Source of the DNA: Rhodospirillaceae bacterium
GTDB taxonomy: Bacteria > Pseudomonadota > Gammaproteobacteria > Steroidobacterales > Rariloculaceae
NCBI GenBank assembly: GCA_024638465.1
Contig: JAHEKF010000006.1
Span: 10,777-74,776 of the forward strand
Length of the DNA stretch: 64,000 bases
Direction of reading: 5' to 3'
The first letter of the stretch is position 1; every line of letters starts with the position of its first letter. Both the position numbers and the translations under genes were made by a program. Positions 4,022-57,039 of the stretch are shown here, piece by piece. The notes beneath the pieces are model-generated. The model saw only the letters and a list, made by a program, of their open reading frames with translations, did not search any database and was not told the origin of the DNA.

Positions 4022-5143
4022 TTAACGGCGATCTGAGGCGCTGCTGCCAATCTCGTCTACGGGAATCGCCACTCCCGCTGGCTTGCCGTCGTGCAGGACA
4101 GGCAATTCAGGAGCCATCTCGCCGTCGAGACGCGGCCCGAACAGGAAAACGCGGAGCGCTTTTAGCGGGTTTGCGACCGTATGGTCGACGGCCGTGCCTT
4201 CGTAGCCGCAATGCACCATGCAATCATCGCATTTGGGGTTTCGACCCGCGCCATAACGCTCCCAATCGGTCGCTTCCATAAGCTCGCTGAACGTCTCGGC
4301 ATAGCCCTCGTCGACGAGGAGATAGCACGGTTTCTGCCAACCGAAAACGTTATAGGTTGGATTGCTCCAGGGCGTGCACTGATAACTTTGATTGCCTGCG
4401 AGGAAATCCATGAACAGGCTGGATTGATTGAAACGCCATCTGCTGCCGCGCTCGCGGCCGATTTTAAAGATCTCGCGAAATAACCGCTTGGTCTGCCTGC
4501 GGCCGAGAAATACGTCCTGTCTGGGTGCGTGCTGATAGCTGTAGCCCGGCGACACGGTAATCCCTTCGAGCCCGAGAGTCATCGCGTGGTCGAAGAAATC
4601 TGCAACGTCGGCAGCATCCTCTCCATTGAACAACGTGCAGTTTGCCGTAACTCGAAACCCGCGACTGCGCGCAAGCTCGATGGCAGCGACTGCCTTATCG
4701 AACACGCCCTCACGGCAAACCGACTCATCGTGACGTTCGCGGTTACCATCGAGATGCACGGACCACGTGAAGTACGGCGATGGCTCATACTCATCTATCT
4801 TCTGCTGAAGCAGCAACGCATTGGTGCAGAGGTAGACGAATTTCTTGCGCGCGACAATTCCGCGAACGATCTTCGGCATGTCCTTGTGGATCAGTGGCTC
4901 GCCGCCCGGTATTGACACGACGGGCGCGCCGCAGTCATCCACGGCGCGGAGAGCGTCTTCGACCGACACACGCTTCTTCAGAATCTCGGCCGGATAGTCG
5001 ATCTTGCCACAGCCCGCGCAGGCCAGATTGCACTGGAACAGAGGCTCGAGCATGAGAACGAGCGGATAACGCTTTCTGCCGCGGAGCTTCTGCTCGAGTA
5101 TGTAGCGGCCGACACGGTAGGTCTGAACCAGTGGAATGCTCAT
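4022..5143 (-). CDS. hpnH: adenosylhopane synthase, radical SAM (HpnH)
   Basis: The sequence RYPLVLMLEPLFQCNLACAGCGKIDYP contains the CxxxCxxC radical-SAM motif in the characteristic HpnH context. The protein is 373 aa. Its start overlaps the idi stop (ATGA). Confidence 0.92.
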   Translation of the reverse strand: MSIPLVQTYRVGRYILEQKLRGRKRYPLVLMLEPLFQCNLACAGCGKIDYPAEILKKRVSVEDALRAVDDCGAPVVSIPGGEPLIHKDMPKIVRGIVARKKFVYLCTNALLLQQKIDEYEPSPYFTWSVHLDGNRERHDESVCREGVFDKAVAAIELARSRGFRVTANCTLFNGEDAADVADFFDHAMTLGLEGITVSPGYSYQHAPRQDVFLGRRQTKRLFREIFKIGRERGSRWRFNQSSLFMDFLAGNQSYQCTPWSNPTYNVFGWQKPCYLLVDEGYAETFSELMEATDWERYGAGRNPKCDDCMVHCGYEGTAVDHTVANPLKALRVFLFGPRLDGEMAPELPVLHDGKPAGVAIPVDEIGSSASDRR

Positions 5144-5748
5144 GTCGTTGATCGACTCTCGTTCGATATGACGGCGATCGAGCTATCGTTGCCGCCGAGA
5201 ATGTTGTCGAGATACCGGCGTGTAATTTGCGACCATTCCATCTTCAGCCAGGGAGTAAAGCTCTCGGGAGTGGCCGCGATCATCTCATCCATCGATATTG
5301 CGGGAACATAGCGAATTTCGGAGATTTCACGGTCGTTGAAATCAACGGAGCCACTGTACCGGCCGTAGTAGACCCAGCAGTATTCGTGCTCCGCGCCTAC
5401 GGCTCCATATTGCGCCTGATATTTGAACTTGTAGAGGAAATGAAGCGGACACTCGATGGCGAGTTCCTCGGCGAGACGCCGCGAGATAGCCTGCTCCATA
5501 GTTTCCCCAACGCGCGGATGCGAGCAACAGGTATTGGACCAGTATTCCGGCCACAAAGGCTTCTCCGCACTTCGACGTTGCAGCAACAATTCGTCGTCTT
5601 CATTGAACAGGAATATAGAAAACGCCCGATGGAGAATACCGTTTCCGGAATGGCAGTCGCTCTTCGCACTCTGCCCGATCTCGCGGTCGAGTTCATCGAC
5701 AAGAATCAGCTCTTCGCCGGAGCTGGATACGACTTCGCTACGTGCCAT
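5140..5748 (-). CDS. idi: isopentenyl-diphosphate delta-isomerase, type 1 (Nudix fold)
   Basis: Motifs LHRAFSIFLFN, WSNTCCSHP (catalytic Cys) and AEHEYCWVY (catalytic Glu) are present. The track ORF extends to 5865, but the ATG at 5746-5748 (MARSEVVSS...) fits IDI length and gives an 11-nt overlap with the upstream gene. Confidence 0.9.
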   Translation of the reverse strand: MARSEVVSSSGEELILVDELDREIGQSAKSDCHSGNGILHRAFSIFLFNEDDELLLQRRSAEKPLWPEYWSNTCCSHPRVGETMEQAISRRLAEELAIECPLHFLYKFKYQAQYGAVGAEHEYCWVYYGRYSGSVDFNDREISEIRYVPAISMDEMIAATPESFTPWLKMEWSQITRRYLDNILGGNDSSIAVISNESRSTT

Positions 5749-46964: not shown

Positions 46965-48212
46965 TTATTCCGGCGCAGACGTGAATTCGGGATAGGCCTC
47001 CAGGCCACATTCCCCGACGTCCACACCTTCGTACTCTTCCTCTTCCGAGACCCGGATTCCCAGAATGGCTTTCAGTATCGTCCAGACGACCAGGCTCGTT
47101 ACGAACACCCAGACGAAAATCGCCGCGATACCAAGCAGCTGGGCGCCGAACGAAGCATCGGAATTCGTCAGGGGAACCGCCAGCAGCCCCCAGATTCCGA
47201 CGACACCGTGCACCGATATCGCACCGACCGGGTCGTCAATCTTGAACATTCGGTCCATGAAGACGATTGACGGCACGACGATCAACCCACCAACGCCACC
47301 GATCAACGTCGCGGCCAGCGGCGCCGGCGTTAGCGGTTCCGCCGTAATCGCAACCAGACCGGCGAGCGCGCCGTTCAGCGCCATCGTGAGATCGGCCTTG
47401 CCGAACCACAGCTGCGACAGCAGAAGCGCGGCGACAAGCCCGCCCGCGGCGGCCATGTTCGTGTTGACGATGACCAATGACACGGCGTTGGCTTCGTCGA
47501 CGTTCGAGATCATGAGCTCCGAGCCGCCATTGAAACCGAACCAGCCCAACCAGAGGATCAGCGTGCCAAGAGCCGACAGAGGAAGGTTCGCACCCGGTAT
47601 CGCCCGAACCTCACCAGCCGGACCATACTTGCCTTTTCGTGCCCCGAGCAGCAGTACACCCGCGAGAGCGGCTGCCGCACCACACATGTGCACGACACCG
47701 GAGCCGGCGAAATCGGAGAAGCCGGCCGCGTCGAGCCAGCCGCCGCCCCATTTCCAGTAGCCCTGGATCGGATAGATGAATCCGGTAAGGACAACTGCGA
47801 AGGCGAAGAACGACCAGAGCTTCATGCGCTCAGCGACCGCACCAGACACGATCGACATCGCAGTCGCAACAAACACGACCTGGAAGAAGAAGTCTGACAA
47901 CCCGGAATAGTAAGGCGCGTCGTCACCGCCGGCGATCACATCGGCGGCAGCGTTGTCGGCACTCGTCAACATACTGATGCCAGGAATGAAGCCGTTGCCA
48001 TCGCCGTACATGATGCCGTAGCCGCAAACCATGTACATGATGCAGGCAATCGAATAAAGGCCGACGTTCTTCGTCAGAATTTCGGCGGTGTTTTTCGCGC
48101 GTACCAGACCAGCTTCCAGCATCGTGAAGCCGGCCGCCATCCACATGACGAGCGCACCCATCACGAGAAAGTAGAAGGTGTCCAGCGCGTAACTGAGTTC
48201 TGCAATTTCCAT
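46965..48212 (-). CDS. amtB: ammonium transporter
   Basis: 415 aa with 11-12 TM helices and Amt signatures (DFAGSGVVHM, AISVHGVVGIWG). It lies downstream of glnK. Confidence 0.95.
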   Translation of the reverse strand: MEIAELSYALDTFYFLVMGALVMWMAAGFTMLEAGLVRAKNTAEILTKNVGLYSIACIMYMVCGYGIMYGDGNGFIPGISMLTSADNAAADVIAGGDDAPYYSGLSDFFFQVVFVATAMSIVSGAVAERMKLWSFFAFAVVLTGFIYPIQGYWKWGGGWLDAAGFSDFAGSGVVHMCGAAAALAGVLLLGARKGKYGPAGEVRAIPGANLPLSALGTLILWLGWFGFNGGSELMISNVDEANAVSLVIVNTNMAAAGGLVAALLLSQLWFGKADLTMALNGALAGLVAITAEPLTPAPLAATLIGGVGGLIVVPSIVFMDRMFKIDDPVGAISVHGVVGIWGLLAVPLTNSDASFGAQLLGIAAIFVWVFVTSLVVWTILKAILGIRVSEEEEYEGVDVGECGLEAYPEFTSAPE

Positions 48213-48230
48213 TGTTATCTCCTTTCTGCC

Positions 48231-48695
<465 letters not shown>

Positions 48696-48863: not shown

Positions 48864-49427
48864 ATGTTGACGATGACTTCGCTCTGGGCCGCCGTACTCA
48901 TCGCGGCGATCCTCACCTGGATCGCCTCAGCACTGATCTGGACCGTTCTTCCCTGGCACAAGAACGACTATTCGCGACTCCCCGACGAAGACCCGGCGCT
49001 CGCAAGCCTGCGTCCTCAGGGCTTGCTACCCGGGCAGTACCACTTCCCGTATATGGCGTCACCCGGCGACGTCAAGGATCCAGCCGTACGGGAGAAGCTC
49101 GAAGCGGGTCCGGCCGGGTTCATGACGGTGCTGCCGCGTGGCGTCCCGAATATGGGCAAGAGCATGGCGTTGAGCTTTGCGTTCAACCTCTTCGTCAGTG
49201 CGGCTGTTGCTTATGTTGCGTCGCGAACCATTGCCGCAACCGCAGACTATCTCGAGGTGTTTCGAGTCACGGGAACGGTCGCGTGGCTGGCCTACGGAAT
49301 GGCGGTCATACCTGACGCGATCTGGTTCGGACGCCCCTGGTCCATAGTGGCGAAGTACATCCTGGATGCGTTTATATACGGTTTGCTGACAGCCGGCGCG
49401 TTCGGCTGGCTCTGGCCCGCGATCTAG
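48864..49427 (+). CDS. hypothetical membrane protein
   Basis: 187 aa behind a strong Shine-Dalgarno (AAGGAG). It has an N-terminal TM helix plus 3 C-terminal TM helices. I recognised no family. Confidence 0.65.
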   Translation: MLTMTSLWAAVLIAAILTWIASALIWTVLPWHKNDYSRLPDEDPALASLRPQGLLPGQYHFPYMASPGDVKDPAVREKLEAGPAGFMTVLPRGVPNMGKSMALSFAFNLFVSAAVAYVASRTIAATADYLEVFRVTGTVAWLAYGMAVIPDAIWFGRPWSIVAKYILDAFIYGLLTAGAFGWLWPAI

Positions 49428-49744
49428 AAATCTTCGGGCGCGACCGTCAGGGTCAAACCATCAAGCTCGTCGCTCATCATGATCTGGCAACTCAGACGCG
49501 ATCGATCGGGATCGAAAGACGACAGGTGCCCGACAAGATCCTGCTCTTCGCTGCTACGCGTGCCGAGCTTTGCTGTCCAATCCGCGTCGATGAACACATG
49601 GCAGGTCGCGCAGGAACAAAGCCCGCCACAGATTGCGTCTACGCTCGCATCGAGATCGCGAATATTCTCCATGACGGAAATACCATTCGTCGCCTCGACT
49701 TCGAGTGCAACAGCATTGCGATTGGTGACATTGATTTTCGGCAC
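49424..49744 (-). CDS. [2Fe-2S] ferredoxin, adrenodoxin/putidaredoxin type
   Basis: CGGLCSCATCHVFID...LSCQI gives the C-x5-C-x2-C...C ligands. GTG 49744 yields (M)PKINVTN and 106 aa, as in homologues. The alternative is ATG 49810. Confidence 0.8.
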   Translation of the reverse strand: MPKINVTNRNAVALEVEATNGISVMENIRDLDASVDAICGGLCSCATCHVFIDADWTAKLGTRSSEEQDLVGHLSSFDPDRSRLSCQIMMSDELDGLTLTVAPEDF

Positions 49745-49840
49745 AAATTGGGATTCTTGCGAAGACGGGGCGGCACTATAGCAGAATGAACTCAGCAGAG
49801 AACGTAACATTGCGACGCCACTTCCGGTCTTGATTAGCAG

Positions 49841-50536
49841 ATGCCAGAAACTCAGCACATCCAACCGAGCTTAGAATCCTGCCTCGTTGTTTTTTTCAAG
49901 GCACCGGATCGCGCCAAGCGGCGGCTGGCAAACGAAATCGGCGACCTTGCGACACGCGCCGCGACGCACCTTTGGGACTGCATCGTGGAAGACGTGGACA
50001 GCTGGCGCGGCTCGGTTTGCTACGCGCCGGCGGAACTCAGCGATGCCGCCTGGCTGTCACGACAGCTGAATACGCCCCATGCGGCAGTTCTTCAGCACGG
50101 CCGCAATCTCGGCGAAAGAATCAACCATGTCGACCGGGTACTTCGCCACGGTGGCGAACGCAAGCTGATCTTCATCGGCACTGACTGCCCGGCGATGCAG
50201 CCGGAATATCTCGAGCGCGCCGATGCCTTGCTCGAAGACTTCGACGTGGTGCTGGGTCCTGCGGCGGACGGTGGCGTCGTCCTGATGGGAGCGCGCGCCG
50301 CGTGGCCGCCGCTAGCGGATCTGCCATGGAGTACCAACGCGCTGCACGAGGAGCTGAATCGTGCCTGCATGGCTCAGGGGAAGTCGGTCGTCGACCTCGA
50401 GCAACGCGCGGATGTCGACACGGTCGCCGAGTTACTCGCGGCGCGCAGAGATCTGGAAGACGACCGACGGCCTGCGCGGCGAGCGCTGTACAACTGGCTC
50501 AAGGAGCCGAATCCCGTCTGGACCGGACACTCCTGA
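49841..50536 (+). CDS. DUF2064/TIGR04282-type nucleotidyl/glycosyl-transferase-like protein ('rSAM/selenodomain-associated transferase 1')
   Basis: Contains CLVVFFKAPDRAKRRL...IFIGTDCPAM...VLGPAADGGVVLMG, the CofC/MobA-like fold pattern of DUF2064. The family assignment is from memory. Confidence 0.7.
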   Translation: MPETQHIQPSLESCLVVFFKAPDRAKRRLANEIGDLATRAATHLWDCIVEDVDSWRGSVCYAPAELSDAAWLSRQLNTPHAAVLQHGRNLGERINHVDRVLRHGGERKLIFIGTDCPAMQPEYLERADALLEDFDVVLGPAADGGVVLMGARAAWPPLADLPWSTNALHEELNRACMAQGKSVVDLEQRADVDTVAELLAARRDLEDDRRPARRALYNWLKEPNPVWTGHS

Positions 50537-51249
50537 TGCGAAATGCGAAACCGATTCTGCTCGCGATCATGGTGGTCGTCATGCTCACAGCCGTGGCATT
50601 GCTGCCTGTCGCGGATTGGCTCGCGATTGGCGTTACGTGGATCGAAGCGCATCGCACCCTCGCGTGGATCGCTTTTATAGCAACCTATATCGTGGCGACC
50701 GTGCTCGTCGTACCAGCCGCCATTCTCACTCTCGGTGCAGGGTTCGTGTTCGGGCTCCCACTCGGCGTTGTGCTCGTCTCCCTGGGTAGCGTACTGGGCG
50801 CTTCGGCGGCATTTCTCGTCGGCCGTTTTTTCGCCCGAGATTGGGTCGCCAGACATATAGAGGGATTGCCGCGCTTCCAGGCGCTGGACCGAGCCACGCA
50901 TCACGAGGGTTTCGTTATCGTTTTTCTCACGCGCCTTTCGCCCTTGTTTCCCTTCAATCTCATCAACTACGGCCTGGCGCTAACCAGCGTCAAGTTTCGG
51001 GACTATTTCTTCGCTTCCTGGATCGGCATGCTCCCGGTTACGATTCTGTACGTCTATATCGGCTCTCTGGCCAGTGAACTGGCGGAGCTGACCAGTGGCG
51101 AGGTGGGCGGCGGCATGGCAAGGACGGTATTTTTCATCGTCGGACTCCTCGCGACCGTCGTCCTGACCGTCGTGATTACGCGCAAGGCGACCAGGACGCT
51201 GGCCGAGCATCTAGCGGCGGAATCCGCGGCAGAGGACTCCCCGCCTTGA
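50536..51249 (+). CDS. TVP38/TMEM64 (DedA-related) family membrane protein
   Basis: The start ATG 50536 overlaps the preceding TGA (TGATG). It has 5-6 TM helices and the characteristic LTRLSPLFPFNLINYGLALT. The track ORF from 50302 is over-extended. Confidence 0.85.
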   Translation: MRNAKPILLAIMVVVMLTAVALLPVADWLAIGVTWIEAHRTLAWIAFIATYIVATVLVVPAAILTLGAGFVFGLPLGVVLVSLGSVLGASAAFLVGRFFARDWVARHIEGLPRFQALDRATHHEGFVIVFLTRLSPLFPFNLINYGLALTSVKFRDYFFASWIGMLPVTILYVYIGSLASELAELTSGEVGGGMARTVFFIVGLLATVVLTVVITRKATRTLAEHLAAESAAEDSPP

Positions 51250-52697
51250 GTCTGCAATATCCGGGAAGTGAGTTCGACGATGTCTGGCGAAAGCTGACGT
51301 TTCCTGACGACCACGTCAATCCGGTACCGCAATCGCGCTACCACCTGGTCGTTATCGGCGCCGGATCGGCCGGGTTGATTTCCGCCATCGGCGCCGCAGG
51401 ACTCGGCGCGCGCGTCGCACTCGTCGAGCGGGACGCAATGGGCGGCGATTGTCTGAACATCGGCTGTGTGCCGTCCAAAGCACTTCTCGAATACACACGC
51501 AGGCACGAAACGCCTGTGAGCTTCGATGATGCCTATCGCTGGCTGCGGCGGGTCCGATCGGAAATTTCGGCGCACGACTCGGTCGAGCGCTACAGGACCG
51601 CCGGCGTCGATGTCTTTCTGGGAAACGCCCGACTCGAAGACGACGGTACGGTCGTCGTCGGAGACAGCCGCCTCAATGCGCGACGAATCGTCATTGCCAC
51701 CGGCGCTCGCGCATCCCTGCCGCCAATTCCGGGCCTGAGCGACACCGAGCCACTGACGAACGAGACACTGTTCGATCTCAAATCGCCGCCGTCGGCACTC
51801 GCCATACTGGGCGCCGGCGCGATCGGTTGCGAAATGGCACAGGCGTTCGCGCGACTCGGCGTCGACGTCCAGCTTTTCGAAATGGCAGAGCGTGTTTTAC
51901 CGCTCGAGGAGGAAGAAGCGAGCACGGCTGTGGAATCGGCACTGAAGCGCGCCGGTGTCACGCTGCATCTAAACGCTGCTGTCACTTCCGCGGCGCGTAA
52001 TGAGGCCGGCGTGACGCTACGGACAGACGACCTCCAGATAACGACCGACCAGGTTCTGGTGGCCGCGGGGCGTCGTGCAAATACCGAAGGTCTCGGGCTG
52101 GAGGCCGCCGGCGTCGCCATCGAAGACGGTCTGGTCAAGGTCGACGCGAAGATGCGTACGACCAACAACAAGATCTTCGCCGCGGGTGACATCTGCTCGA
52201 AGGCCCAGTTCACCCACAATGCGGATGCTCAAGCGAGGATCGTCGTACAGAACGCATTGTTCGCTGCCACTGCGAGCGCCGACAAGCTCATCATTCCTCA
52301 CTGCACCTACACCAAACCGGAAGTCGCGCACGTCGGTCGCAGCCGCCGGGATCTGGCTGCCGATAATACGGATTTCGACGTTTACCGCGTCAACCTCGGT
52401 GAGCTCGATCGTAGTCGTACGGCAGGAGATACCGATGGCTATGTCGAAGTACTGACGCGAAAAGGCCGCGACGGCATCCTCGGTGCGACGATCGTCGCGC
52501 ACGACGCCGGCGACCAGATAGCCGCTCTGTGTCTGGCGATGGCTCATGGCATCGGGCTCGCCGGTTTCGGCAAAGCGGTACTGCCCTATCCCACTCGCGC
52601 GGAGTACTTGCGCCGACTGGCCGACGCCTATAATCGGACACGCCTCACGGATCGCACGAAAGCGCTGATGTCCCACTGGTTTCGCTGGAGCGCATGA
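51246..52697 (+). CDS. pyridine nucleotide-disulfide oxidoreductase, class I (mercuric reductase/dihydrolipoamide dehydrogenase-like, no NmerA)
   Basis: Contains VVIGAGSAGL (FAD), the redox-active disulfide GGDCLNIGCVPSK, LAILGAGAIGCE (NAD(P)H) and a C-terminal dimerisation domain. TTGA overlap with the upstream gene. Confidence 0.85.
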   Translation: MSLQYPGSEFDDVWRKLTFPDDHVNPVPQSRYHLVVIGAGSAGLISAIGAAGLGARVALVERDAMGGDCLNIGCVPSKALLEYTRRHETPVSFDDAYRWLRRVRSEISAHDSVERYRTAGVDVFLGNARLEDDGTVVVGDSRLNARRIVIATGARASLPPIPGLSDTEPLTNETLFDLKSPPSALAILGAGAIGCEMAQAFARLGVDVQLFEMAERVLPLEEEEASTAVESALKRAGVTLHLNAAVTSAARNEAGVTLRTDDLQITTDQVLVAAGRRANTEGLGLEAAGVAIEDGLVKVDAKMRTTNNKIFAAGDICSKAQFTHNADAQARIVVQNALFAATASADKLIIPHCTYTKPEVAHVGRSRRDLAADNTDFDVYRVNLGELDRSRTAGDTDGYVEVLTRKGRDGILGATIVAHDAGDQIAALCLAMAHGIGLAGFGKAVLPYPTRAEYLRRLADAYNRTRLTDRTKALMSHWFRWSA

Positions 52698-53413
52698 TGC
52701 CCGCTCACGCCGTATCGATAATCGTTCCGGTGCTGGCCGATTCGGCCGCGCTAGCTGCGCTGGTAGCGCGAATTCGGAAGTGGCCCGAGCAGCCCGCCGA
52801 AATTCTGGTCGTCTCCGCCGGGCCGAACAGGGAACTGCAGGAACGCTGCAGTGCGCTTCGATGCGGCTTTCTGGAATCAACCCGCTGCCGCGGCGTTCAG
52901 CTCGATGCCGGAGCTCGGGCGGCGAGCGCGGATATTCTCTGGTTCATGCATGCCGATGCAGGACCGCATCGCGACAGTCTCGGTGCGATCGCTGCCGCAA
53001 TCGACGCAGGTGCGATCGGCGGGTTCTTCCGCTTCAGGCTCGGCGGGCGGGCGGCGTGGTGGAAAGCACTGCTCGATCGATTGACAGGTCTGCGGGTTCG
53101 GCTTGGCGGCATCCCGTATGGGGATCAGGGTCTGTTCGTCGCACGGGCAGCCTACGAAATCTCGGGCGGTTTCGCTCCGCAACCGCTCTTCGAGGAGGTA
53201 GCGCTCGTCAAATCGTTGCGTCGGCAGGGGCACTTTCGCGCGCTTTCACTGCCCATAGAGGTAGACGCACGACGCTGGGAGCGCGACGGCTGGTTGTCGC
53301 GAAGCCTGAGCAACCGGATGCTTGCGCTTCGATACAGTCTCGGCTCGTCCGCCGAGAACCTCGCCGAGCACTATGACAGGGTAGCAGTGACTGACAGGAA
53401 AGCGACATCGTGA
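52694..53413 (+). CDS. GT2-like glycosyltransferase, TIGR04283 type ('rSAM/selenodomain-associated transferase 2')
   Basis: Contains VSIIVPVLADS (GT-A N-terminus), ILWFMHADA and PYGDQGLFV. ATGA overlap with the upstream gene. The family assignment is from memory. Confidence 0.7.
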   Translation: MMPAHAVSIIVPVLADSAALAALVARIRKWPEQPAEILVVSAGPNRELQERCSALRCGFLESTRCRGVQLDAGARAASADILWFMHADAGPHRDSLGAIAAAIDAGAIGGFFRFRLGGRAAWWKALLDRLTGLRVRLGGIPYGDQGLFVARAAYEISGGFAPQPLFEEVALVKSLRRQGHFRALSLPIEVDARRWERDGWLSRSLSNRMLALRYSLGSSAENLAEHYDRVAVTDRKATS

Positions 53414-54315
53414 GCGCAGCAGATCCGTTGACCCACACACCGGACGCTGAACCGCGGGGCTATATCGATCCCGGCGCGCTGCGCGAACTTTGGTTCCATA
53501 CCGGGACGGCTTGTAACCTCGATTGCCCTTTCTGTCTCGAAGGATCGAAACCCGGGGACACTCGACTCGACAGGATCAGGCTAGACGACGCACGGCCGCT
53601 GATCGACGAGGCCGTCGAACTCGGCGTCGAACAATTCTCGTTTACAGGCGGTGAGCCATTCATCGTCAAAGACTTCGTCAACATTCTGCAATACGCGTCG
53701 GAGACAAAGCCCTGCCTTGTATTGACGAACGGCACGGACGTGGTCTTGAAACGCATGCGGCAGATCGAGACGCTGACAGATCAGCCTAATCCGATCGCAT
53801 TTCGGGTCAGCATCGATTTTCCGGATGAGTCACGCCATGAAGCCGCTCGCGGAGCGGGCAACTTCGCGAAATCCTGGCTGTGTCTCTCGGAGCTTCACGC
53901 GCGCGGATTCAAAGTCTCGATCGCGCGTCAGATCGGTTCGGACGAAGACGAGAAATCCGTAACGGCAGCCTACAAAGCGCTGTTCCGAACGTACGGCCTG
54001 CCCGAGGACACGACAATCGTGTCTTTTCCCGATTTTCTCACGCCCGGCTGTCATCCACAGGTGCCGCATATCACGGAACACTGCATGACGACTTACCATA
54101 CGGAGGAATCTCGCGCGGCGTTTATGTGCGCTTTCTCCAAGATGATTATCAAGAAGAGTGGCCGCATGCGCGTCTACGCATGCACGCTCGTTGACGACGA
54201 CGAGACCTATGACCTGGGCGGTACGCTGGCGGAGAGCCTCGGGAAACGCGTCATGATGCGCCACCACCGCTGCTACAGCTGCTTCGCGTTCGGCTCTTCC
54301 TGCAGCGAACTCTGA
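53410..54315 (+). CDS. radical SAM protein with C-terminal Cys-rich domain (ArsS/TIGR04167-like)
   Basis: Contains the CxxxCxxC motif TACNLDCPFC, FTGGEPF, and the C-terminal CMTTY...MCAFSKM...YACTL...HHRCYSCFAFGSSCSEL. GTGA overlap with the upstream gene. Confidence 0.75.
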   Translation: MSAADPLTHTPDAEPRGYIDPGALRELWFHTGTACNLDCPFCLEGSKPGDTRLDRIRLDDARPLIDEAVELGVEQFSFTGGEPFIVKDFVNILQYASETKPCLVLTNGTDVVLKRMRQIETLTDQPNPIAFRVSIDFPDESRHEAARGAGNFAKSWLCLSELHARGFKVSIARQIGSDEDEKSVTAAYKALFRTYGLPEDTTIVSFPDFLTPGCHPQVPHITEHCMTTYHTEESRAAFMCAFSKMIIKKSGRMRVYACTLVDDDETYDLGGTLAESLGKRVMMRHHRCYSCFAFGSSCSEL

Positions 54316-54332: not shown

Positions 54333-55322
54333 TCAGGCCGGGAAGAAATCGATCGGCTTGGTCGTCGTGATCGCTTCTACGTCCCTGGCTTCGAACTGGA
54401 ACAACAGGACGCGCTGCACGAGCTTCTGCTCGAGATCGGGATCGCCGAGCTCCGAGGATACGACCTCGCAAAAACTCACGGTGCCGCTTGGCTCAATCGT
54501 CAGGCGCAGCAACAGCTTTCCTACGAGCAGCGGATTCGAACGAAGCGCGCGGTTGTAGAGAGCGAAGATAGCGCCTTTGTTGCGATCGAACACGAGCTCG
54601 ATCTCCTCACGGCTACGCGAAGGCAGGTTACTTGACCCGGCCCGCGCGGTGTCACCGCCGACAGGTGCTAATCCCTCGAGCGGATTGTCGACCTGCGTGG
54701 TCGCGCGTGCGACCAGACCGCTCCCGCCCGTCGTTCGGCTGAACGAACTCGTATCGATGCCTCCGCTGGAGCTCTGCGCAGCCGATGTGATCAGTGAACG
54801 ATCGGTCGACGGCGCGTCGCTTTCAGTCGCTCCGACGACGTCGGTCTCGCCGAGACTTTCCAAAGCCTCGTTGTCACGCAGAGATGCGAGCTCTGCTGCA
54901 AACGGCAACAAGCCGGCAACGCTGGCCCGCTCGCGAGCGGCCTGCACGTTCTCGACCGGTTCCGCAGGTGCGATCGGCTCGAGCGGAACTTCCACGACTG
55001 GCTCGGGCTCGGGCACCGCTTCCGGTTCGACGAGCTGCTCGACCACCGGTTCCGGCTCCGGAATCGGTTCTTCCTCCACGACTACCGGCGGCGGGGGTGG
55101 CGGCGGCGCTTCACGCTCGAGCACCAGCCGTGCGAAGCGATTCGGTATCTCTTCGATTTCGGCCGGGTCAGGCTCGGGTAGCGGCACGACGCCCAGAATG
55201 ACGCTGAGCAACAGGAGCAAACCGGCGGCCCGCACGGCAATACGCCGAAACGCCTGATCCTGTTCCCCACCGGTAACCCAGGGCAGATCGTAGACGCGAT
55301 ACAAGGATAACGCTGTCGCCAT
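54333..55322 (-). CDS. TonB-like energy-transducer with AgmX/PglI-type C-terminal domain
   Basis: Has an N-terminal TM anchor and a Pro/Glu-rich spacer (EAPPPPPPPVVVEEEPIPEPEPVVEQLVEPEAVPEPEP). The C-terminus is ELVFDRNKGAIFALYNRALRSNPLLVGKLLLRLTIEPSGTV. Confidence 0.8.
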   Translation of the reverse strand: MATALSLYRVYDLPWVTGGEQDQAFRRIAVRAAGLLLLLSVILGVVPLPEPDPAEIEEIPNRFARLVLEREAPPPPPPPVVVEEEPIPEPEPVVEQLVEPEAVPEPEPVVEVPLEPIAPAEPVENVQAARERASVAGLLPFAAELASLRDNEALESLGETDVVGATESDAPSTDRSLITSAAQSSSGGIDTSSFSRTTGGSGLVARATTQVDNPLEGLAPVGGDTARAGSSNLPSRSREEIELVFDRNKGAIFALYNRALRSNPLLVGKLLLRLTIEPSGTVSFCEVVSSELGDPDLEQKLVQRVLLFQFEARDVEAITTTKPIDFFPA

Positions 55323-55326
55323 CGGT

Positions 55327-55860
55327 CTAGCCGCCGGAACCTGTCAGTGTCGCGATCTGCACGTCGGAGGACACCTGCATCACTGCCAGGGAAAGCTGCC
55401 CGTACTCCGCATCCGTACAGGTCGCCATGATGCGCTTCAATAACGAATACGGAATTTCCTTGTCGCCCATTATCGTAACTTCGCGACCGGCGACATCTTC
55501 GCGAGCATCCTGCCGCAGGGTTCGGTCCGTTTGACTCTGCAAAGCGGCGCGCAGCTCGGGAATGATCAGCTCTTCGCGCTGCATGATTTCGGGAACGTTC
55601 GCAACGCGCCGACCCTGAACGAGTAGATCGCTGTCAGTCACCGTCACGACAACGGTTTCGCGCGCGCGTTGCTCTGCAACAGATTCGGGCAGAGCCATGT
55701 CCTTCGCATTGGGTAACGTCTGCACCTCGCCGGAATTAACCAGCAGGAAGAACACGAGAATCGTAAAGATATCCATCAGGGATACGAGATTCAGCGAGAC
55801 ACCGCGCTTGTGCCTCGCATGGTGGCGCTCCATTCGCGCCGCTCGACTCGTGTACCGCAT
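55327..55860 (-). CDS. exbD: ExbD/TolR-family biopolymer transport protein (paralogue 2)
   Basis: Contains LNLVSLMDIFTILVFFLL (single TM, with Asp in the TM helix) and a periplasmic domain. 177 aa. Confidence 0.88.
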   Translation of the reverse strand: MRYTSRAARMERHHARHKRGVSLNLVSLMDIFTILVFFLLVNSGEVQTLPNAKDMALPESVAEQRARETVVVTVTDSDLLVQGRRVANVPEIMQREELIIPELRAALQSQTDRTLRQDAREDVAGREVTIMGDKEIPYSLLKRIMATCTDAEYGQLSLAVMQVSSDVQIATLTGSGG

Positions 55861-55872
55861 CGCGCCCGCCCC

Positions 55873-56376
55873 CTATTGCATCATCGGCGCGTCGCCGATT
55901 GCGATTTCCGGAAACAGCTCCAGCTTCGCGACGACCAGACGCTCTTCGTCGGCTCTCTCGAAAACGCGGACCTTGTCCATAACGTCGACCAGCGACTGGT
56001 AAGAAATTTCAGGCTCGAGCAGCAAGGTAGCGTCGAGCTTATCGGGAAACTGCCGTTTTACGGTCGCGAGGAAAGCACCAAGCTCGTCAAGATCATATCC
56101 CTGATCCGTGTTTTCGATTCGCGTCAACAGGCCGCCGTTGCGATCGCCAACATCGATCGAATCTTCGCGTACGATAATCTCGAGATTGAGTTCCGCTTCC
56201 GGCGGCTCGCTCGAATCTCCCTGAGATGTCGGCAGATTGAGCTCGAGAATCGCGACCTGCGAGAAGACCGCCGTAATCAGCAGGAACGGCACAAGAATCA
56301 CCATCAGATTCATGAACGCGGTGATATTGAGTTCCACAGCTTCGGTGCGGCGGGCTCGAGAGCGACGATGACGCAT
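55873..56376 (-). CDS. exbD: ExbD/TolR-family biopolymer transport protein (paralogue 1)
   Basis: Contains LNITAFMNLMVILVPFLL and a periplasmic domain. 167 aa. Confidence 0.88.
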   Translation of the reverse strand: MRHRRSRARRTEAVELNITAFMNLMVILVPFLLITAVFSQVAILELNLPTSQGDSSEPPEAELNLEIIVREDSIDVGDRNGGLLTRIENTDQGYDLDELGAFLATVKRQFPDKLDATLLLEPEISYQSLVDVMDKVRVFERADEERLVVAKLELFPEIAIGDAPMMQ

Positions 56377-56379
56377 CGG

Positions 56380-57039
56380 TTAACTCGCGGTTTCAGTCGA
56401 TTTGGCTTCCGAGTGTTCCGTCAATGCGTTCAGGAACTTCACCGATGCCATCTCGAGGCTGTCGACAATTTCAGTTGTCTTCGTCTGCAAAAGCGTGTGC
56501 ATGAGCAATAGTGGAATCGCGACCATGAGGCCGAAGGCCGTCGTGTTCATCGCAACCGAGATGCTGGCCGAGAGGAGATCGGCTTTCTCAGCGGGATTGG
56601 CATTCGATACCGCCGTGAACGCACGGATCAGGCCAATGATAGTGCCAAGCAACCCGAGCAGCGTTGCGATATTCGCGAACGTCGCGAGGTAATGCGTACG
56701 CTTTTCGAGTTGCGGCATGACTTCCATGAGACTCTCTTCCATCGCTTTTTCGACGTCTTCGCGACGCCGGGATGAACGCACACGTGAGAGGCCATAACTC
56801 AAGATCGTCGCTATCGCCGCTTTCGACTTCCCCGTGATCTGAACGGCGTTACTGAAGTTGCCGGCTTTAAGATGTGGCGTAATCTTTTTCCAGATCGACT
56901 TGTTTTTCACCGTAGCAGTGGTCAGATATAGCCATCGCTCGATCGCTATGGCCAACCCGAGAGCCAGCACGATCACGATCGGGTACATGAATACGCCGCC
57001 TTCCTGGAAAAACCCAACAATGGTGGAAAAGACTTCCAT
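56380..57039 (-). CDS. exbB: MotA/TolQ/ExbB proton-channel protein
   Basis: 219 aa with 3 TM helices and the conserved C-terminal block ATLLGLLGTIIGLIRAF...AMNTTAFGL. Confidence 0.9.
   Translation of the reverse strand: MEVFSTIVGFFQEGGVFMYPIVIVLALGLAIAIERWLYLTTATVKNKSIWKKITPHLKAGNFSNAVQITGKSKAAIATILSYGLSRVRSSRRREDVEKAMEESLMEVMPQLEKRTHYLATFANIATLLGLLGTIIGLIRAFTAVSNANPAEKADLLSASISVAMNTTAFGLMVAIPLLLMHTLLQTKTTEIVDSLEMASVKFLNALTEHSEAKSTETAS

Follow-up and report, generated by a model that had tools for sequence, protein, structure and literature searches.

The stretch of DNA analysed here (the window) comprises 64,000 nucleotides of contig JAHEKF010000006.1, from a metagenome-assembled genome (MAG; GCA_024638465.1) deposited as Rhodospirillaceae bacterium, a marine gammaproteobacterium classified in the family Rariloculaceae. 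It carries an operon of five plus-strand genes (49841-54315), delimited from a listing of open reading frames (ORFs) and by direct reading of the junctions, the last of which codes for an enzyme of the radical S-adenosylmethionine (SAM) class (Table 1). The initial annotation described the operon as a cassette of the ArsS or "arsenosugar" type, a description that stands; the partner families and the gene context are those of ArsS loci. More precisely, the operon is a conserved ArsS-type cassette in which ArsS itself is replaced by a distinct sister family and from which the methyltransferase ArsM is missing.

The annotated gene overlaps (TGATG at 50534-50538, TTGA at 51246-51249, ATGA at 52694-52697 and GTGA at 53410-53413) are all exact on reading, and both the CLNIGC motif and the Cys-rich tail (...CYSCFAFGSSCSEL) can be read in the ORF translations. 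Among 80 related loci found in other genomes, approximately 30 have the five-gene order of the window, so the arrangement is not due to chance. Inside the operon, a scan of the 48-56 kb interval found no promoter-like (sigma-70-like) site and no terminator-like site above chance; an Rfam scan of the same interval gave no match. The GC content of the operon matches that of the surrounding DNA.

Table 1. Genes of the operon and of its flanks in the window.
Feature	Position	Strand	Assignment
DUF2064 protein	49841-50536	+	CofC/MobA-like nucleotidyltransferase fold, TIGR04282-like
VTT/TVP38 (DedA) polytopic membrane protein	50536-51249	+	PF09335
MerA-like class-I flavoprotein disulfide reductase (distinct from MerA)	51246-52697	+	closest model NF004991
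GT2 glycosyltransferase, TIGR04283 family	52694-53413	+	TIGR04283 and PF00535
Radical SAM enzyme, unnamed ArsS-like sister family	53410-54315	+	PF04055 only
[2Fe-2S] ferredoxin, adrenodoxin/ISC type	49424-49744	-	Pfam Fer2, divergent to the operon
187-aa membrane protein	48864-49427		no significant family match
glnK-amtB	46965-48569		upstream flank
TonB-like/AgmX C-terminal-domain protein, two ExbD, one ExbB	54333-57039		downstream flank

The radical SAM enzyme and its relation to ArsS

The radical SAM protein had initially been linked to ArsS, an assignment that the family tests do not bear out. Against TIGR04167, the ArsS model, it scores 39.4 bits (33.6 bits in the genome-wide search) with a cut-off of 300, and the match covers model positions 7-149 only, that is, the N-terminal core. 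With DUF3641 (PF12345), a true ArsS from a genome of the class (L084), used as control, scores 192 bits, but the window protein gives no match at thresholds up to E <= 10; the only Pfam family recognized in it is PF04055. In a maximum-likelihood tree, ArsS (support 100/100) and the window-type proteins (99/96) form separate clades that lie far apart, with other ArsS-like groups between them that carry related tails, e.g. NHPHCAxFCVLGGASC.

The CX3CX2C cluster motif (C35-x3-C39-x2-C42) is invariant in an alignment of 32 family sequences, as are six further cysteines (C225, C240, C258, C288, C291 and C298), which include those of the tail CYSCFAFGSSC. This tail is related to the Cys- or selenocysteine-rich tail of ArsS (CYGCTAGQGSSC) and is one residue shorter (HHRCYSCFAFGSSC in the window type versus HCYGCTAGQGSSC in ArsS); the C-terminal ends of the window protein and its relatives read HHRCYSCFAFGSSCSE, those of true ArsS proteins from genomes of the same class HCYGCTAGQGSSCGG. 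In 85 loci, a tail cysteine was never found replaced by a TGA codon, as selenocysteine would require. Profile alignment of the full-length families with hhalign covers the core only (96% probability, 22% identity over the aligned core). When the C-terminal halves are aligned alone, five Cys columns including the tail coincide, in an alignment that is weak (E 6.7e-4, probability 27%), so that C-terminal homology to ArsS is suggestive, not proven.

An AlphaFold2 model of the 301-aa protein (predicted local distance difference test, pLDDT, 87) combines a partial TIM barrel with a C-terminal domain of the twitch/SPASM type. Among solved structures, the nearest folds are BlsE, SkfB, SuiB and MoaA; sequence and fold searches of the PDB gave only such generic twitch/SPASM radical SAM enzymes, and the PDB contains no ArsS structure for comparison. 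Among the NCBIfam models, the best match is the Rv1681 family (NF049973), an assignment that was rejected because the score reaches only 102 of the 380 bits needed, with the core alone; a literature search on Rv1681 as a radical SAM protein found nothing. HpnH, at 35 bits, has no specific sequence relationship to the protein. In public records, the protein is named "radical SAM protein" or mislabelled AslB or MoaA. Judged by its sequence, the enzyme is thus a remote relative of ArsS in a distinct sister family and not a member of the ArsS family. The literature searched contains no functional study of this family.

Partner genes in related loci and across genomes

A scan of species-representative genomes yielded the 80 loci mentioned above, which encode radical SAM proteins 64-78% identical to that of the window. 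Nearly all come from uncultured marine Gammaproteobacteria; the others include Neptuniibacter, Alcanivorax limicola, another Alcanivorax genome and Kistimonas. Neighbours were counted within 7 kb in those 70 loci whose sequence extends 5 kb or more upstream of the radical SAM gene. DUF2064 was found in 55 of these, GT2 in 52, the reductase in 47, the VTT protein in 42, the ferredoxin in 23, an ArsM-like methyltransferase in 20 and an MTAP-type phosphorylase in seven. Gene orders vary, from the five-gene order of the window through DUF2064-VTT-GT2-rSAM (rSAM, radical SAM), DUF2064-GT2-rSAM and reductase-rSAM to divergent halves and ArsM-rSAM pairs.

An ArsM-like gene adjoins the radical SAM gene in approximately 27 of the 80 loci, about a third, and in a library of representatives at 50% identity the radical SAM domain is fused to an ArsM-like methyltransferase at either end (P0242, P0243 and P0258; NF008823, 183-193 bits). 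One window-type locus (L104) has the order DUF2064, VTT, reductase, GT2, ArsM-like, rSAM, i.e. the window operon plus a methyltransferase. Its counterparts with true ArsS read VTT, reductase, ArsS, GT2, DUF2064, ArsM (L109) and reductase, ArsM-like, ArsS, GT2, DUF2064 (L108). ArsM-like proteins encoded next to ArsS share 63-65% identity with those encoded next to the window-type enzyme, and three copies that were read contain the Cys motifs ACC, YYGCG, SNCV and GECLSGA, which we take to be the conserved arsenic-binding set of ArsM.

The MTAP-type gene lies 3' of the radical SAM gene in L062, L064, L076, L077, L079, L081, L103 and L113. In the library of representatives, the radical SAM domain is also joined to DUF2064 (P0308), a metallophosphoesterase, an HD/YfbR-like 5'-deoxynucleotidase domain and a flavin oxidoreductase; DUF2064 itself is fused to GT2 in L113. 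Relatives at a greater distance (44-47% identity) occur in the related cassettes L111, L112 and L113. In L113 (3808-11537; radical SAM protein 44% identical), an OpuAC-type ATP-binding cassette (ABC) importer is followed by rSAM, VTT, reductase, the DUF2064::GT2 fusion and an MTAP-like phosphorylase; with its betaine/choline-like importer, this cassette may be a hint that the substrate taken up is methylated or of the onium type. L111 (1559-7963; 46% identical) contains TetR, rSAM and DUF547 and, on the other strand, VTT, an AhpD/CMD-like protein, the reductase and a CDP-alcohol phosphatidyltransferase, which suggests that a phospholipid headgroup may be the end product in that lineage. L112 consists of an ArsM-like gene and rSAM. 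A larger cluster in one carrier genome (L103, 6616-16015) combines MTAP, rSAM, ArsM-like, DUF2064, DUF547 and GT2 with a 777-aa membrane flavoprotein that carries 4Fe-4S ferredoxin domains and takes the place of the VTT/reductase pair, and with a 581-aa polytopic protein that has no family match. The wider superfamily also occurs outside cassettes, as shown by a remote relative (P0309, locus L110) that stands alone, with none of the partner genes.

The distribution of the family was compared with that of ArsS in a class sample of 201 genomes, one per family. ArsS scores over its cut-off in 99 of them, about half; for the comparisons, a genome was counted as ArsS-positive at E <= 1e-30 (102 of 201). 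The window-type enzyme occurs in four of the 201 genomes, none of which has ArsS, and none of 50 further carrier genomes has it either (0/54 carriers versus 102/197 non-carriers, Fisher p 7e-15). The sister family and ArsS are thus mutually exclusive, and they have common partner families, including the same ArsM-like orthologue group. Given the absence of ArsS from carriers, the identical partners and the adjacent or fused ArsM-like genes, the sister clade probably stands in for ArsS.

ArsM or an ArsM-like protein is found in 46 of the 102 ArsS-positive and 14 of the 99 ArsS-negative genomes (odds ratio 5). Three of these 14 are window-type carriers, each with the methyltransferase directly beside the radical SAM gene; among the 50 further carriers, 14 have an ArsM-like gene at E <= 1e-30 and one more a sub-cut-off match. 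The other 56 of the 102 ArsS-positive genomes, more than half, have no ArsM-type methyltransferase; in heterotrophic bacteria, the partner on which the "arsenosugar" label of ArsS cassettes depends is thus often lacking. The reductase of the NF004991 type (at least 400 bits) is present in 74 of 102 ArsS-positive versus 21 of 99 ArsS-negative genomes (odds ratio 9.8, p 2e-13); in 21 genomes, its gene and that of ArsS lie within 10 kb of each other. By these odds ratios (~10 versus ~5), ArsS-type enzymes are accompanied more faithfully by the reductase than by ArsM.

The two transferases of the operon fared differently against their models. The GT2 protein passes TIGR04283, as annotated, with 187.5 bits (cut-off 182) over model positions 1-221 of 221, and matches PF00535 with 40.5 bits. 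The DUF2064 protein is a clear member of PF09837 (78 versus 25.8 bits); TIGR04282 is its best match, over the full model length, but its 109.4 bits fall below the cut-off of 134, so that it is TIGR04282-like and no more. The initial claim of family membership therefore fails for the radical SAM protein and for one of the two transferases, both of which stay below cut-off. The DUF2064 protein also matches PDB entry 3cgx, a "putative nucleotide-diphospho-sugar transferase", at E 1e-14, and its role would be the activation of a sugar-1-phosphate.

The TVP38 protein (PF09335, 104 versus 33.9 bits; about seven hydrophobic segments) is the predicted membrane partner of the flavoprotein. Both had been described as interleaved in the operon; in the survey of loci, TVP38 and the MerA-like reductase prove to be regular members of ArsS-type cassettes and not random inserts. 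Some Rariloculaceae-type loci (L026, L027, L033 and L045, ~4300-5730 in each) have a tandem pair of VTT genes between DUF2064 and the reductase, with 55-60% and 63-67% identity to the VTT gene of the window.

The flavoprotein comes closest to NF004991 (FAD-containing oxidoreductase, PRK06370.1-3), with 561 bits (cut-off 620) over positions 13-507 of 509, and scores 330.6 bits with the MerA model TIGR02053 (cut-off 454). With MerA (TIGR02053; PDB 5x1y, 1zk7) it has in common the class-I flavoprotein disulfide reductase architecture, the CxxxxC redox pair (GGDCLNIGCVPSK) and a Tyr in place of the catalytic acid-base His (PYPTRAE, aligned with PYLTMAE of 5x1y). The same site aligns with His in lipoamide dehydrogenase and RclA, and the Tyr is present in all 48 cassette homologues of the flavoprotein. 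In contrast to MerA, the window protein ends in ...MSHWFRWSA with no C-terminal Cys pair, has no N-terminal metal-binding (NmerA) domain, carries N-terminal (YPGxEFDDxW...FP) and C-terminal (RTRLT...WFRWSA) extensions of its own and belongs to a subfamily that goes together with a VTT membrane protein, either as a gene pair or as a fusion. Its identity as MerA was rejected on the missing Cys pair and the score below the TIGR02053 cut-off; a homologue search returned generic names only.

Pyridine nucleotide-disulfide oxidoreductase domains are the commonest fusion partners of COG0398 DedA/TVP38 proteins, and the paper that describes these fusions assigns them no function (PMC10127716). The window shows the same two-domain partnership in the form of separate, translationally coupled genes; unlike the fusions of that paper, the window pair is tied statistically and by position to ArsS-type cassettes. 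In three loci (L062, L066 and L077), the motifs of the reductase lie in open frames of 714-739 aa, a size which suggests that they encode VTT::reductase fusions.

Flanking genes and host genome

In many related MAGs of the clade of the window, the cassette has the same glnK-amtB and tonB-exbBD flanks, and its core-genome position is thus stable. A [2Fe-2S] ferredoxin had been noted divergently upstream of the operon; it is indeed encoded there on the minus strand, with its stop at 49424 and its likely start at GTG 49744 (MPKINVT...; alternative starts at 49810 and 49864). The protein has the ligand pattern CX5CX2C...C, scores 21.2 bits with Pfam Fer2 (cut-off 21) and stays at 43 bits with the ISC-type model TIGR02007 (cut-off 132). 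The suggestion that it serves the radical SAM enzyme as electron donor holds in so far as it is a plausible one-electron donor for priming of the cluster. All the loci in which it neighbours the radical SAM gene belong to the clade of the window, where the unrelated glnK-amtB and tonB-exbD genes are syntenic as well; the link is therefore weak, and a dedicated partnership with the operon is unsupported outside this clade. The gene of a 187-aa membrane protein, for which DUF1761 at E 0.03 was the only family hit, converges on the ferredoxin gene with stop codons that overlap by 4 nt (49424-49427); a homologue of it was seen in one further locus only (L024).

The host MAG is 88% complete. Profile searches of it found no ArsS, and the absence of arsM that had been noted for the window extends to this genome by profile search and tblastn, the latter, with three ArsM-like proteins as queries, returning generic methyltransferases only. 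Selenium genes had been noted as absent from the window, and none lies near the operon, but the genome has a selD gene on other contigs, interrupted where one of them ends (C73:31646-33595, continuing at C89:6618-6962). In its product, an NDH-2-like FAD/pyridine-nucleotide oxidoreductase domain is joined to a selenophosphate synthetase in its Cys form (...MRCGGCGAKI...); the host thus makes some use of selenium. Contig C29 carries an MTAP homologue of the housekeeping type.

Possible substrate and pathway

The reading that we favour, with a probability of roughly 0.6, is that of an ArsM-less ArsS-type cassette whose sister enzyme would adenosylate an imported, reduced methylarsenical, with activation and transfer of the sugar to follow. 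A methylated arsenical, most likely dimethylarsenate from seawater, would be taken up, and TVP38 and the MerA-like flavoprotein would keep it trivalent. The radical SAM enzyme, primed by one electron that may come from the [2Fe-2S] ferredoxin, would then add the 5'-deoxyadenosyl radical to the arsenic centre. Adenine would be removed by an MTAP-type phosphorylase, which is cassette-encoded in Neptuniibacter-type loci and for which the host genome offers only the copy on C29. The DUF2064 nucleotidyltransferase-fold protein could activate the resulting sugar-1-phosphate, and the TIGR04283 GT2 protein could transfer the sugar to an acceptor, e.g. glycerol or a lipid headgroup.

The model for this chemistry is ArsS, which by a redox-neutral radical reaction turns trivalent dimethylarsenic, DMAs(III), into 5'-deoxy-5'-dimethylarsinoyl-adenosine (PMC13598754); by analogy, we infer an ArsS-like adenosylation for the window-type enzyme. 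The ArsS cassette of the Synechocystis-type arsenosugar pathway has the same partners, namely DUF2064, TIGR04283 GT2, VTT, the MerA-like reductase and, in relatives of the window operon, the ArsM-like protein, and the two enzymes have in common the radical SAM core, the position in the operon and, as it seems, a C-terminal Cys tail of the CYxCxAxGSSC type. Unlike in the ArsS cassette, the enzyme of the window belongs to another family that lacks DUF3641, the genome has no ArsM, and the DUF2064 protein is below the TIGR04282 cut-off. ArsL (arsinothricin), which transfers a 3-amino-3-carboxypropyl group, and HpnH (adenosylhopane) likewise transfer a SAM-derived fragment with no H-abstraction, as the window family may do, and belong to the radical SAM enzymes that use such a fragment to make carbon-heteroatom or C-C bonds; neither is specifically related to the window enzyme in sequence.

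Several observations weigh against this reading. Neither ArsM (best NF008823 match 54 bits) nor Acr3 was found in the host genome, so that the involvement of arsenic in the host rests on its relatives, and 35 of the 50 carrier genomes, including several closed chromosomes, have no ArsM-like gene. The window-type enzyme sits on a long branch, very far from ArsS in sequence, its substrate could have changed, and the C-terminal profile alignment to ArsS is the weak one described above. The conserved chromosomal position looks like that of a core trait rather than of a detoxification island. The co-occurrence statistics ignore phylogenetic relatedness, and no functional study of TIGR04282, TIGR04283 or DUF2064 was found in the literature searched.

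With ArsM absent from the host and from most genomes close to it, a substrate other than arsenic is a serious rival, though in our estimate a rather unlikely one. The same cassette would then serve a sister enzyme that adenosylates or otherwise modifies another soft nucleophile (selenium, sulfur or antimony) or a carbon centre, and the transferases would build an unrelated 5'-deoxyribose-type glycoconjugate or membrane lipid. Such a substrate would fit the 56 ArsS-positive genomes that also lack ArsM, the long branch, the core-genome position of the operon, the selD gene of the host and the family's links to a CDP-alcohol phosphatidyltransferase (L111) and a betaine-type importer (L113). Yet the only substrate-informative partner found, whether adjacent or fused, is an ArsM-type methyltransferase, and the mutual exclusion with ArsS also speaks against it. 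For selenium in particular, the tail cysteines are never encoded by TGA, and no selenium gene adjoins the radical SAM gene in any locus read.

Two further explanations appear far less probable. TVP38 and the flavoprotein might form an independent membrane-redox module that landed between the transferase genes and acts outside their pathway, for example in thiol or oxidant homeostasis, as RclA or hypothiocyanite reductases do. VTT/reductase fusions are the commonest of the COG0398 DedA fusions in general (PMC10127716), the reductase subfamily persists in 21 of the 99 ArsS-negative genomes, and the reductase is missing from 23 and the VTT protein from 28 of the 70 loci. We nevertheless consider such a module quite improbable in view of the odds ratio of ~10 with ArsS-type enzymes and the distance of at most 10 kb in 21 genomes, of the pair standing next to ArsS or the sister enzyme in several different orders (L104, L109 and L113), of the reductase-rSAM pairs in L038-L047 and of the stop and start codons that overlap on both sides in the window. 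That the radical SAM protein is after all a true ArsS, a member of TIGR04167, in an ordinary arsenosugar operon could be argued from a tail and partner genes that resemble those of ArsS, but is scarcely credible: the TIGR04167 score, confined to the N-terminal core, the missing DUF3641 and the separate clades refute it as a claim of membership.

Within the favoured reading of an ArsM-less, arsenic-using cassette, a more specific proposal is doubtful but worth stating, namely that TVP38 and the Tyr-for-His flavoprotein may be the missing bacterial system for uptake and reduction of pentavalent methylarsenicals (dimethylarsenate to DMAs(III)), which would make the cassette a salvage or assimilation pathway. 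To our knowledge, arsenosugar biosynthesis has been demonstrated no further than its first committed step (ArsM, then ArsS), and we know of no enzymes for adenine removal, sugar activation and sugar attachment, nor of any bacterial reductase for pentavalent methylarsenicals. The operon and its relatives provide a compact set of candidates: DUF2064, the TIGR04283 GT2, the MTAP-type phosphorylase, and the VTT protein with the MerA-like reductase. Surveys of arsS by TIGR04167 or DUF3641 miss this group of marine Gammaproteobacteria, and ArsM-less ArsS-type cassettes raise the question of whether their methylarsenic is made by others or their substrate is a different one. If the salvage reading is true, marine heterotrophs that lack ArsM would scavenge dimethylarsenic derived from phytoplankton and convert it to arsenosugar-type glycoconjugates or phospholipid substitutes; the window-type enzymes would be a second, independently diverged family of radical SAM enzymes that form C-As bonds, and the cassette would not be a detoxification add-on to ArsM.

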